DNA from: Octopus vulgaris | Taxonomy: Eukaryota | DNA: 64,000 nt | Direction: 5' to 3' | NCBI GenBank assembly: GCA_951406725.2 | Contig: OX597833.1 | Coordinates: 19,716,001 to 19,780,000 of the forward strand | Part shown: piece by piece, positions 34,579 through 63,822 of the stretch | Numbering within the stretch: position 1 is the stretch's first letter | How the letters are laid out: each line of letters starts with the position of its first letter | Notes under the pieces: generated by a model | Databases searched by the model: none | The model's input: the letters and a program-made list of their open reading frames with translations, nothing else | What the model was told of the DNA's origin: nothing | Program-made: the position numbers and the translations under genes

Positions 34579-35474
34579 TGGGGGGTGCAGAAATATAGGG
34601 GAGCACCAGTGGGAGGGGTGGTTCAGAGGACAGGTACTAGTCAAGTAGAACGTAGGATATCGAGAGAGGGGTAATGCATGGTGAAATAGCGTATTGAAGA
34701 GGGGGTTCAAAGAGTAGACACCTATAATGGTGGTGGGGGGTGCAGAAATATAGGGGAGCAGCGTATTGAAGAGGGGGGTTCAAAGAGTAGACACCTATAA
34801 TGGTGGTGGGGGGTGCAGAAATATAGGAGAGCACCAGTGGGAGGGGTGGTTCAGGGGACAGGTTCTAGGCAAGTAGAACGTAGGATATCGAGAGAGGGGT
34901 AATGCATGGTGAAATAGCGTATTGAAGAGGGGGGTTCAAAGAGTAGACACCTATTATGGTGGTGGGGGGGGGATGCAGAAATATAGGGGAGCACCAGTGG
35001 GAGGGGTGGGCACCAGTGGGAGGGGTGGTTCAGAGGACAGGTTCTAGGCAAGTAGAACGTAGGATATCGAGAGAGGGGTAATGCATGGTGAATAGCGTAT
35101 TGAAGAGGGGGTTCAAAGAGTAGACACCTATAATGGTGGTGGGGGGGTGCAGAAATATAGGGGAGCACCAGTGGGAGGGGTGGTTCAGAGGACAGGTTCT
35201 AGGCAAGTAGAACGTAGGATATCGAGAGAGGGGTAATGCATGGTGAAATAGCGTATTGAAGAGGGGGTTCAAAGAGTAGACACCTATAATGGTGGTGGGG
35301 GGATGCAGAAATATAGGGGAGCACCAGTGGGAGGGGTGAGCACCAGTGGGAGGGGTGGTCCAGAGGACAGGTTCTAGGCAAGTAGAACGTAGGATATCGA
35401 GAGAGGGGTAATGCATGGTGAAATAGCGTATTGAAGAGGGGGTTCAAAGAGTAGACACCTATAATGGTGGTGGG
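34579..35474. repeat. G-rich tandem repeat, ~155-175 bp unit, 6 copies (one internally deleted)
   Basis: TGCAGAAATATAGG recurs at 34586, 34741, 34814, 34974, 35148, 35304. Confidence 0.95.
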
Positions 35475-35558
35475 AGAAAAACGACATCCGGTATAGTTGG
35501 AGCAAAATAGAGATATCCGGTATTGGTGGTGGGGGTGGGGGTGGGTAGGGCGGGCGCG

Positions 35559-36456
35559 CCGCGAAGAATCGGCAGCCAATTTCTATAAGGGAGATAGATC
35601 TTAAAATATCAATAACGATAACTAGTGAATTATACAGAATATGCAAAACGAGACGAGGCGAGGCGAGGCTGAAATAGTAAACAGAGTGGCGACTAGGGGG
35701 ATCAGAATAATAATAATTAATAAATAATAATAATAAATAGAGATACGGATGAATTAAAGTTCAAAGATTTCTTATCTTGAGATCACTTCGTTTACGGACA
35801 GACTTGGCAAAAGGAATTCGGAATCAAGAATGAGGCAGTTTACTAGCTTAAGTATGCATAGCCATGGCGGGTGGTAGGAAGAGAGGAGTCCAGACAGACG
35901 ACAATGTAACAAGAGGGGGAGAGAAGGAAGAGAAAAGAAAAACCCCGCGAAGAATCGGCAGCCAATTTCTATAAGGGAGATAGATCTTAAAATATCAATA
36001 ACGATAACTAGTGAATTATACAGAATATGCAAAACGAGACGAGGCGAGGCGAGGCTGAAATAGTAAACAGAGTGGCGACTAGGGGGATCAGAATAATAAT
36101 AATTAATAAATAATAATAATAAATAGAGATACGGATGAATTAAAGTTCAAAGATTTCTTATCTTGAGATCACTTCGTTTACGGACAGACTTGGCAAAAGG
36201 AATTCGGAATCAAGAATGAGGCAGTTTACTAGCTTAAGTATGCATAGCCATGGCGGGTGGTAGGAAGAGAGGAGTCCAGACAGACGACAATGTAACAAGA
36301 GGGGGAGAGAAGGGAAGAGAAAAGAAAAACCCGCGAAGAATCGGCAGCCAATTTCTATAAGGGAGATAGATCTTAAAATATCAATAACGATAACTAGTGA
36401 ATTATACAGAATATGCAAAACGAGACGAGGCGAGGCGAGGCTGAAATAGTAAACAG
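35559..36456. repeat. 386-bp tandem repeat, about 2.3 near-identical copies
   Basis: GCGAAGAATCGGCAGCC at 35561, 35947, 36333. Confidence 0.95.
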
Positions 36457-58148: not shown

Positions 58149-58189
<41 letters not shown>

Positions 58190-58380
58190 AATAAAATATA
58201 TGCATATATATAAACATATATGTACGTACCTACCTCTACATGTACATATACACGCATATATGTGTACAGGACACCAAAAAGACGTCGAACACATAGAGAG
58301 ACGAAAAACATAGACACAAACCAAGGAACAAGACAGGCAAAAAAAGGAGGAGATACAGGACAATAAGCACAACGAAAAAT

Positions 58381-58443
58381 CCCCTTCTTCAGTCGCTAAA
58401 GTTTCATCTACTAAACGTTTCGAAGGATAAAAGCGAGACGTAT
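58381..58443 (-). ncRNA. Second diverged copy of the permuted hammerhead
   Basis: auacg-UC-ucgcu [uuuauc] cuuc-GAAA-cguuu [15 nt] agcga-CUGAAGA-A-gggg, with compensatory changes relative to 63019-63079. Confidence 0.7.
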
Positions 58444-60081
58444 ACTTCGAAGAAAAATTCCTTCCTGAGAAAAGCAAATCAATTAAAATTCTGAGATCTT
58501 TTCGCAGAGGGGTAAAAAAAGCAAGACGGTAACGACAGTACAAACATATAAACAGTAAAAAATATATATATAAACAGTGGAAAAATAAATATATAACAGT
58601 GAGAGACAGGACAAGGAGAACAAGATAAGAAGGGCTGTTAACGCCAGACGAAAAAAGTATTGCAAACGCTGGATTATAGTGGACGACGAGAGAGGAAGAT
58701 GTCGACCAGTAGCCTTAGAAGGCGGGCGAGAAAGGACAGGATAGCAGTTACGACGGAAGTATCGTCGCAGATGGACGACATATATATATATGAAAATTAG
58801 TAGGATAGAAAGAGGATCAATGAAGTGAAATAAATAGTTATTAACTGATAATTTCAGCTGAGATTGTTTGAAGGAATTCTTTGCATATTTTAGTGTAGAA
58901 GAGCAAAATAGTGCTAATCTCTTACACTTGAAATCAGGTAAGGATTAATGACAGGAAAGGCATCTGGCTGTAAAGCAATGCCTCATGAATATATTCATTT
59001 AATCCAGTGGTTCTCAACCAGGGTCCACATGACCATCGGGATTTTATATTAGATTAGGGGGTGGGGGGTCCACACAAGCAAAATAATAGGATATTAAGTA
59101 GCCATAAAATGAATTTTGATTTTAATGAATTTATTGCAAGAAACGGCTGGGTTTCTTTCTCTGTCTTACGTAGTTCAACCTACACACGTTAAGCCTTTTG
59201 TTACTGTATTTATTTTGAGATGCTCTGTGTTTCTTTCAATTACTTTAAATATAACAAAGAATTTAGTAAAATAAATTAGTTATCATTTAGCTAGTGTTAG
59301 GAACGTAAAATGTGACTAGGGTTTTAGTGGAAGATTTTAATTCAAAACTTATGAAAATAAGACATTTGTACTACAGAGCCAGAGCTGGTTTCAGCTGGGT
59401 TGGTAATGAAAGGGTTAATGTTTGAAAAACAAATTAGGAATTTTGAAAGAAGCATCAATAAAACTAGTTTTTAAACCCCAAGCAGCTATGGGAGTCCACG
59501 AGGGTAAAATAGTAATCAAAGGGGTCTACAGGTAAAAAAAAAGATGGTTGAGAAAACCAATGATAGAAAAAGCAAATTGAGTAAATATTATTTACAATGA
59601 TGATACGGCATTGGTCGGCCCGAGGCTATAGCAGAAGACACTTGCCCAAGGTGCCACACAGTGGGACTGAACCCGGAACCATGTGGTTGGTTAGCAAGCT
59701 ACTTACCACACAGCTACTCCTCCTCCTCCTATGTAGTCTTTTTTTTTTTTTGTAAGATGTCAGGGTGTGATTTTAGATTTTGCTACTGTTTCTAGCAGTT
59801 TGAGCAACCACATGGCTGATCCTTTGTTGGATCGACTGTTGCAGTATTTGTTATGTATTATTACATATCATTGAAGTTGTTTGGTTTTTGGGTGCCTTTC
59901 ACAGAGTGCATTCTGTTGTAAGCATTCAGGCTAGCTCTCGAGTTTGACAATAACTTCCCCTACTTCTTTCCACTAGTTTGAAAGGACCCGACAAAAAATA
60001 AATGCATCAATAAAGAGCTTATGGGTGCTTCCCTTCCAATCCTGACTAAACACTAAAAAAATTTAATTCTGCTTCTCAAAC

Positions 60082-62804: not shown

Positions 62805-63822
62805 ATAACAAATTAATAAATAAAACATATGCATATATACATACATATATGTACGTACCTACATCTATATGTATATATACATGCATATATGGGTACAGGA
62901 CACCAAAAAAACGTCGAACACAATGAGAAACGAAAACATAAACACAAAACCAAGGAACTGGACATTTTTCTTAAACAACGAAAAAATAGAGTACAGGACA
63001 AATAACACAAGGAAAATTCTCCTTCTTCAGTCGCCATGGTTTCATCTACTCCGCGTTTCGAAGGTGAAGGCGAGACGCGACTTCAATGAAACATTCCTTC
63101 CCGCGAAAAGCAAATTAAATAAAATTTGAGATTTTTTTGTGGAGGGGTAAAAATGGTAACAAAAACAGGACTGTAAAGACAGTACAAAATATAAACAGTA
63201 AAAGACAGGACAAGGAGAATAACAAGACAAGAAGGGCTGTTAAGCCGAACAAGATAAAGTATATGAACGCTATTTTTGGGAACGGCAAAGGAGCAACAGA
63301 AAATGCCGTCTACACTCGGGTGAAGCAAGGTCAGAAAAGACAATAGTTTCCTCGTCGCTGACCAGCGACGGGACAGGGGAGGAGGAGTAAGAGAAAGGGA
63401 AGGGGAGAGAAAAAAGAGGAATGGTTGTAGAGAAAACCAGAAAGAATGAGAGAGAGGGAGAGACAGTAAGGTAGAAGAAAAGGAAACCAGAAAGAAGGAA
63501 GGCTGAGAAAGAGAGGGGGACAGAAAGGTTAAGAGTGCGCATCAGTATTAATATTAAGAACAAACTTACTTAGAAATGAATGCGTGCGTTCTGTCGTCTA
63601 ATAACAAATTAATAAATAAAACATATGCATATATACATACATATATGTACATACCTACATCTACATGTATATATACATGCATGTATGGGTACAGGACACC
63701 AAAAAAACGTCGAACACAATGAGAAACGAAAACATAAACACAAAACCAAGGAACTGGACATTTTTCTTAAACAATGAAAAAATAGAGTACAGGACAAATA
63801 ACACAAGGAAAAATACCCCTTC
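62805..63822 (-). mobile_element. Non-coding element with ~220-bp terminal direct repeat (796-bp period), PLE pseudo-LTR-like; diverged relative at about 58188-58785
   Basis: 62805-63025 recurs at 63601-63822; flanked by TA-rich microsatellites; carries the permuted HHR. Confidence 0.7.
63019..63079 (-). ncRNA. Candidate hammerhead ribozyme, non-circularly permuted strand order
   Basis: Minus strand: cgcg-UC-ucgcc [uucac] cuuc-GAAA-cgcg [16 nt] ggcga-CUGAAGA-A-ggag. All three stems pair. Confidence 0.72.

Follow-up and report, generated by a model that had tools for sequence, protein, structure and literature searches.

Two permuted hammerhead cores in the window

The window, the whole 64 kb stretch of Octopus vulgaris DNA that was analysed, holds two copies (E1 and E2) of a repeated element, both read from the minus strand. 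Their parts are as follows.

58187..58780, minus strand: copy E1, a 5'-truncated member of subfamily A of a non-coding tandem element, sitting in (TA)n
58432..58441, minus strand: E1 block S, with the stem III 3' strand ACG at 58441-58439, U16.1 at 58438 and C17 at 58437
58436-58432, minus strand: remainder of E1 block S, the stem I 3' strand UCGCU; predicted cut at 58437/58436
58415..58425, minus strand: E1 block G, with the stem II 3' strand CUUC, GAAA (G12-A15.1) at 58421-58418 and the stem III 5' strand CGU
58398..58414, minus strand: E1 purine-rich G-to-C linker, containing AGUAGAUGAAAC, a possible partner of the pyrimidine tail
58381..58397, minus strand: E1 block C, with the stem I 5' strand AGCGA, CUGAAGA at 58392-58386, an extra A at 58385 and the stem II 5' strand GGGG
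62805..63822, minus strand: copy E2, a subfamily B partial tandem consisting of a short 3' fragment and then a full unit, period 796 bp
63019..63079, minus strand: E2 candidate type-SGC hammerhead, with U16.1 at 63075, C17 at 63074 and the predicted cut at 63074/63073
63059-63056, 63030-63024 and 63023, minus strand: GAAA, CUGAAGA and the extra A of the E2 hammerhead

The 3' end of E1 near 58187 is the fixed 3' end of the element, and E2 is flanked by TA/TATC microsatellites. With a slash marking the predicted cut, the minus strand of E1 from 58441 to 58381 reads ACG-UC/UCGCU ... CUUC-GAAA-CGU ... AGCGA-CUGAAGA-A-GGGG and that of E2 from 63079 to 63019 reads CGCG-UC/UCGCC ... CUUC-GAAA-CGCG ... 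GGCGA-CUGAAGA-A-GGAG. The cut position in E1 is predicted by analogy and is also supported by the 5' junction data given below. An initial annotation of this DNA had proposed a permuted hammerhead in both copies, and we find minus-strand blocks S, G and C in each of them. The order of the blocks, S (cleavage site), G (GAAA) and C (CUGANGA), is the non-circular permutation called type-SGC, and the core features CUGANGA, GAAA and UH with A15.1-U16.1 are all present. We ran a descriptor covering all six block orders on the window, with 200 dinucleotide shuffles as the control. It matched exactly twice, at E1 and E2 and both times in SGC order; the 200 shuffles gave no SGC match and one CSG match.

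Rfam gave no gathering-level match in the window, and none of the 44 matches at E<=10 around E1 lay over the ribozyme or belonged to a hammerhead family. Such misses are expected because the hammerhead models have the canonical block order. Single-strand folding returned minimum free energy structures other than the hammerhead (z-scores from +1.1 to -1.3), which is uninformative because the three stems cross.

The initial annotation described the two copies as widely different. They do differ, but only to the extent of 78-87% identity (123/158 in the 5' part, 50/62 in the ribozyme, 163/187 in the 3' part), and in this comparison the ribozyme is not better conserved than its 3' flank. Both of the compensatory changes that it pointed out are real: pair 1.5/2.5 of stem I is U-A in E1 and C-G in E2, and pair 15.4/16.4 of stem III is A-U in E1 and G-C in E2. 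What its list left out is the next stem III pair, U.U in E1, which relative to E2 is a double change with pairing lost. The ggag/gggg difference that it cited in stem II is also present but carries no evidential weight, because the ggag of E2 is a rare single-copy variant (A at 10.3 in 4/122 copies of subfamilies A-C). If the stem I strands are swapped between E1 and E2, the distal end of the stem has a U.G wobble one way and a C.A mismatch the other. The two copies alone are suggestive; the chance that four changes in 16 paired positions fall in two matched pairs, calculated post hoc, is about 1.5%.

A large non-coding tandem family

We scanned the 2.8 Gb genome (227 contigs) on both strands and compared pattern counts with a control. 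A pattern built on blocks G and C only gave 2738 + 2706 matches against 0 + 1 in the control, and a disjoint pattern for the older subfamilies gave 793 + 808 against 0 + 0. The two non-overlapping patterns thus total 7,045 genome matches against one control match, these being counts of G-C block pairs rather than of whole ribozymes. The unit is arranged head-to-tail with periods of 752-886 bp and one hammerhead each, and up to three anchors occur in tandem. We saw no credible ORF in the unit. Its 3' end is fixed and runs into (TA)n, and its 5' ends vary. Most copies are truncated monomers or partial tandems, and inverted truncated pairs are also present. Partial tandems, inverted truncated copies, microsatellite targets and a fixed 3' end are together hallmarks of Penelope-like elements, as these are characterised in the portions of PMC8557442 used here.

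To describe the ribozyme across the family we took 272 candidates, of which 180 had upstream homology and 179 were unique; two without block S were dropped, and the remaining 177, a sample in which near relatives of E1 and E2, and copies from contig C1, are over-represented, were sorted into eight coarse subfamilies, A-H. All stems and the core are intact in 135/177 copies and in 0/7 of the old family H. Conservation of the G and C blocks is partly by construction, these having been chosen by the search pattern. The positions of block S played no part in selection, and U16.1 is kept in 172/177 copies. Throughout the 177 copies position 17 is C, A or U, never G, and N7 is A, U or G.

Twenty sequencing runs from eight studies and four organisms contain the element, as assembled contigs of which none is labelled RNA. 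The contig sets of four runs that we compared cover the unit and show no starts or ends. Runs X16-X20, DNA-sized or unlabelled and from three other organisms, hold 50-60% of E1 words, which indicates that the family reaches related species.

Covariation in stems I and III

We compared the stems at the level of subfamilies. Seven of the ten variable stem pairs are double-changed and canonical in all eight groups, compared with 49 of 3,918 background column pairs that pass the same test; subfamily B and some other groups are partly defined by stem letters. The double changes fall on four of the five pairs of stem I and three of the four pairs of stem III. Stem II has one single and one double change, found only between A-F and G/H, and within A-F none of its pairs is double-changed. 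When 30 real copies were aligned with MAFFT, blind to structure, the picture was similar: 94.7% of cells paired and seven pairs changed on both sides. None of 500 shuffles, a control that ignores the relatedness of the copies, matched the paired fraction on this alignment, and sliding the registers lowered pairing to 38-66%. Tree-based parsimony found double changes at 5/15 pairs against 9/5,550 in the background; this count split double changes across neighbouring branches, and the subfamily-level count was used in its place.

The initial annotation had concluded that the fold is under selection. For stems I and III we accept this because the covariation is seen in the genome-wide family, beyond the two copies. 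It had also named uncompensated mismatches in most homologs as the observation that would speak against it, and this objection falls because each of the two pairs that it named is paired in 173/177 copies. We regard the fold as genuine, with selection acting on it in the source elements.

The register of stem II

In the predicted active register of stem II, one extra A follows CUGANGA, leading to G10.1-C11.1 and a helix of 3-4 bp. A viroid hammerhead with an extra core nucleotide is reportedly a precedent for this. A rival pairing, GAAGG/CCUUC, is perfect in all of A-F and would bury G8 and A9. Calculated for isolated duplexes, the rival has -6.2 to -6.4 kcal/mol in A-F and the active stem -1.7 kcal/mol in A-E and +1.4 kcal/mol in F, so that the rival is at least 4.5 kcal/mol more stable throughout A-F, E1 and E2 included. 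By contrast, the older G/H strands GCUC/GGGU pair as G-C, G.U, G-C and U.G when placed in the active register, and they disrupt the rival. Because of this we take the active register to be the conserved one. Because the rival pairing is the more stable in A-F, the ribozymes of the window copies, as read from sequence, may be slow or regulated.

Two other registers were considered and rejected as the conserved one. A stem II with no insertion has A.C as its first pair in every subfamily and is broken in G/H, and the G8-burying register is likewise broken in G/H, though viable in A-F.

The purine linker and the pyrimidine tail can pair in all subfamilies, in various registers rather than a single one, as a possible stem I-II interaction helix; in no subfamily does this linker-tail duplex surpass background at a level better than 9%. 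The stretch just 5' of block S (58470-58445 of the window, minus strand), which has equivalents in all subfamilies, holds a small hairpin and a GGAAGGA-type purine run that is predicted to pair with the pyrimidine tail after block C, with -5 to -11 kcal/mol in B-H and -3.6 kcal/mol in A.

5' junctions of truncated copies

Reverse transcription from the fixed 3' end on a cut template is expected to leave copies that start at or just after the cut. With an anchor lying approximately 145-180 nt downstream, we located the 5' ends of 99 among its first 100 matches; 61 of the 99 copies reach upstream of the predicted cut. Eleven ends fall at 0 to +15 after the predicted cut, where flanking rates predict 2.2 (Poisson p=2e-5), and the interval from -19 to -1 contains no end at all. 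The best 16-nt window of all begins at position 0, the width having been picked after seeing the data. The background is inflated because a part of the mapped ends comes from subfamily divergence or internal deletions. In the sample of subfamilies A-C the ends lie at +4 to +15, with none at 0. No excess of ends is seen at +50 to +60, the 3' edge of the fold.

Counts of TA sequence next to the ribozyme were made on the reverse strand, those on the forward strand being inflated by overlaps and left out. Among 382 reverse-strand copies with TATATA no more than 30 nt from block G, 288 have it no more than 11 nt away. In a microhomology-matched comparison within subfamily A, 75 junctions lie at TAT just after the predicted cut and 5 at TATA/ATA just before it, the latter count being somewhat lowered because the before-cut pattern fixes more letters. 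The G/H copies show the same tendency, which is ambiguous there since the bases before the cut resemble TA; upstream-window counts for G/H were inflated by long TA tracts and discarded. We also observed that the inverted fold-back copies L063, L128, L275, L279 and L200 change direction no more than roughly 10 bases past the predicted cut, L063 at stem I.

The ends of truncated copies thus pile up just past the predicted cut, which is indirect evidence of cleavage in vivo and makes self-cutting of the RNA in the animal likely. The proportion of ends (11 of approximately 70 copies reaching this point) suggests that cut RNA is a real template in about one-sixth of passes.

Comparison with known systems

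Type-SGC hammerheads have been validated in metatranscriptome RNAs, where 583 sequences, presumed circular RNA replicons, were reported and none came from the genome of a known organism (Eckert et al., 2023; PMC10085705). Published SGC RNAs of like size self-cleave during in vitro transcription (PMC10085705). The present family resembles HRIMA-1 and the SGC variants in its S-G-C order, its CUGANGA/GAAA/UH core with G10.1-C11.1, one insert after A9, a short S-to-G linker and a core of about 60 nt (PMC10085705). Validated SGC ribozymes also have one inserted base at this place, which is a U in the constructs, patterns and rows compared from that source, whereas it is an A here (PMC10085705). Unlike published SGC ribozymes, this family has a G-to-C linker of about 15-17 nt and a G.U-rich stem II with a rival register. 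The published SGC-3 needs an interaction helix that joins stems I and II at their distal ends (PMC10085705). The patterns of Eckert et al. cannot match this family because they call for CUGAUGAG or CUGAUGAUG together with a linker no longer than 15 nt. In every feature tested other than the interaction helix, the predicted fold is that of a type-SGC hammerhead.

The carrier is, in its organisation, an element of the non-LTR retrozyme kind. Like the metazoan non-LTR retrozymes described in the cited parts of PMC7229834 and bioRxiv 10.64898/2026.07.22.740005, it is non-coding and head-to-tail, with one hammerhead per unit and thousands of copies, and autonomous Penelope-like elements co-occur with it, as in the cited part of PMC7229834. 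It falls outside that class in two respects: according to those parts of the two sources, non-LTR retrozymes have type I (CGS) hammerheads and units of 150-450 bp, whereas here the hammerhead is SGC and the units are 750-890 bp. Partial tandems, inverted 5'-truncated copies, TA microsatellite targets and a 3' end that is fixed, internal and followed by a short tail are shared with the Penelope-like elements that carry hammerheads in pseudo-LTRs; unlike these, the present unit has no ORF and a full three-stem permuted ribozyme in place of a minimal dimeric type I (cited sections of PMC4209133, PMC8557442 and PMC11167929). In the literature searched, mainly non-subscription papers, we found no report of a genomic SGC hammerhead.

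Penelope-like elements in the same genome

The genome holds intact ORFs with reverse transcriptase (RT) and GIY-YIG domains, and these elements also end in TA tracts. We found no sequence shared between the unit and the one intact autonomous family examined, and no SGC ribozyme in the best 30 GIY-YIG loci. At one locus (L047, reverse strand, approximately 1850-2350) the unit continues past its tail-head junction directly into a Penelope ORF that is 5'-truncated and has the same orientation, and no TA tract separates the two; this single observed chimera is compatible with either template switching or nested insertion.

According to PMC11167929, a purified Penelope protein introduces nicks into AT-rich DNA and initiates reverse transcription within its own RNA. 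The same source reports that an anole hammerhead of this kind cut only with its protein, that hammerhead mutants left insertion in vitro unaffected, and that cleavage ends of the Penelope hammerhead were not found in RNA-seq. Metazoan hammerheads of Penelope-like elements are weak and act as dimers (PMC4209133, in part).

Proposed mechanism and alternatives

The explanation that we favour, and regard as probable, is a hammerhead core in S-G-C order inside a 750-890 bp non-coding tandem unit, with an RNA that likely self-cleaves after UH and that a Penelope-like element likely reverse-transcribes in trans. Transcripts that read through tandem units would fold into three mutually crossing stems and be cut once per unit. 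Primed at a nicked TA tract, the Penelope RT would begin synthesis internally on the RNA, where the fixed 3' end of the element lies. On cut linear RNA it would run off about 250 nt upstream, giving a copy that starts at the cut or a few bases after it, and on uncut or circularised RNA it would read through to give partial tandems.

One alternative is that the three strands pair between two RNAs or together with the Penelope protein, the single-chain triple pseudoknot not being the active form. Covariation is blind to the difference between pairing in cis and in trans, single-strand folding misses the structure, and the rival stem II is the more stable one in A-F. The dimers of PMC4209133 and the protein dependence of the anole hammerhead (PMC11167929), as far as the cited parts of both sources go, lend this reading precedent. 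By contrast, stems I and III are full helices of 4-6 bp rather than the minimal palindromic helices of dimers, and the like-sized SGC RNAs of PMC10085705 cleave alone during in vitro transcription. We judge this alternative unlikely, while giving it some weight.

It is also conceivable, in our view distinctly improbable, that the ribozyme was active in the old G/H subfamilies and is mostly switched off in the young ones, the window copies included. The fold would then be a recognition or pausing signal for the RT or RNP, and the pile-up of 5' ends would come from fold-back or stalling. This would agree with a GAAGG/CCUUC complementarity that is perfect throughout A-F, with inverted junctions of L063, L128, L275 and L279 in the same few bases, and with the insertion in vitro of hammerhead mutants (cited part of PMC11167929). 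However, young subfamily A itself has a strong junction step (75 versus 5), and position 17 is never G. A stall would moreover be expected at the 3' edge of the fold, where there is no excess of ends, because the partner strands have already been copied when the RT reaches +15 to 0.

That a high-copy repeat happens to contain complementary stretches, whose covariation would come from shared ancestry, is barely credible and largely refuted by the present data. In its favour, eight coarse subfamilies are few independent lineages, 49 background column pairs pass too and the shuffle ignores relatedness. Against it, 7/10 stands opposite 49/3,918, the pairs that pass stack into two helices of exact hammerhead geometry, slid registers lose pairing, and the evidence from the junctions does not depend on the alignment.

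Self-cleavage in the S-G-C fold with reverse transcription in trans can be extended to a more ambitious claim, to which we give an even chance. This would be the first genome-encoded animal non-circularly permuted hammerhead, monomeric in vivo, with the 5' junctions of hundreds of insertions preserving a record of its cleavage; the young, expanding subfamilies would have gained the G8-burying stem as a brake that leaves most RNAs uncut or circular for read-through. If so, the family is a natural series bearing on how SGC ribozymes arose and on the role of hammerhead cleavage in Penelope transposition. Earlier, non-circular permutations had been validated only in unassigned environmental RNAs, and animal surveys sought type I by descriptor. 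That one animal genome contains approximately 7,000 matches to the patterns suggests that descriptor surveys miss a class of ribozyme-bearing elements. The finding may bear on the 'half-core' motifs in Naiads, as treated in part of PMC8557442. For the question of what Penelope-linked hammerheads do, the junction step gives an exact predicted cut site.

Other hammerhead-like motifs

A young autonomous Penelope-like family with a 765-aa RT + GIY-YIG ORF occurs at L470:1487-3784 (G000:C5:1040500-1046500), where a 466-aa ORF lies upstream, and also at L157, L162, L469 and L471. At its 3' end (approximately 4660-4715 of L470) is a canonical-order, minimal hammerhead-like motif starting UUGAUAA, which may be a C3U/G8A variant. 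Further small elements, flanked by TA or inverted, have hammerhead matches in canonical (CGS) order on the reverse strands of L159 (428-530), L162 and L154, and these matches indicate that several ribozyme-bearing families coexist in the genome. The window itself has a TA-flanked tandem element with 155-bp and 386-bp units at 34600-36456, in which the hammerhead descriptor found no match in any block order. Outside this genome, there was no SGC relative among the 179 metagenome and viral matches listed (at least 120 metagenome and 58 viral); the two passes in that scan are one canonical-order tandem. In a metagenome contig (L304:18-112), a 50-nt tandem repeat can be read as a minimal hammerhead in canonical order, in which CUGAGGA is followed by an extra A.
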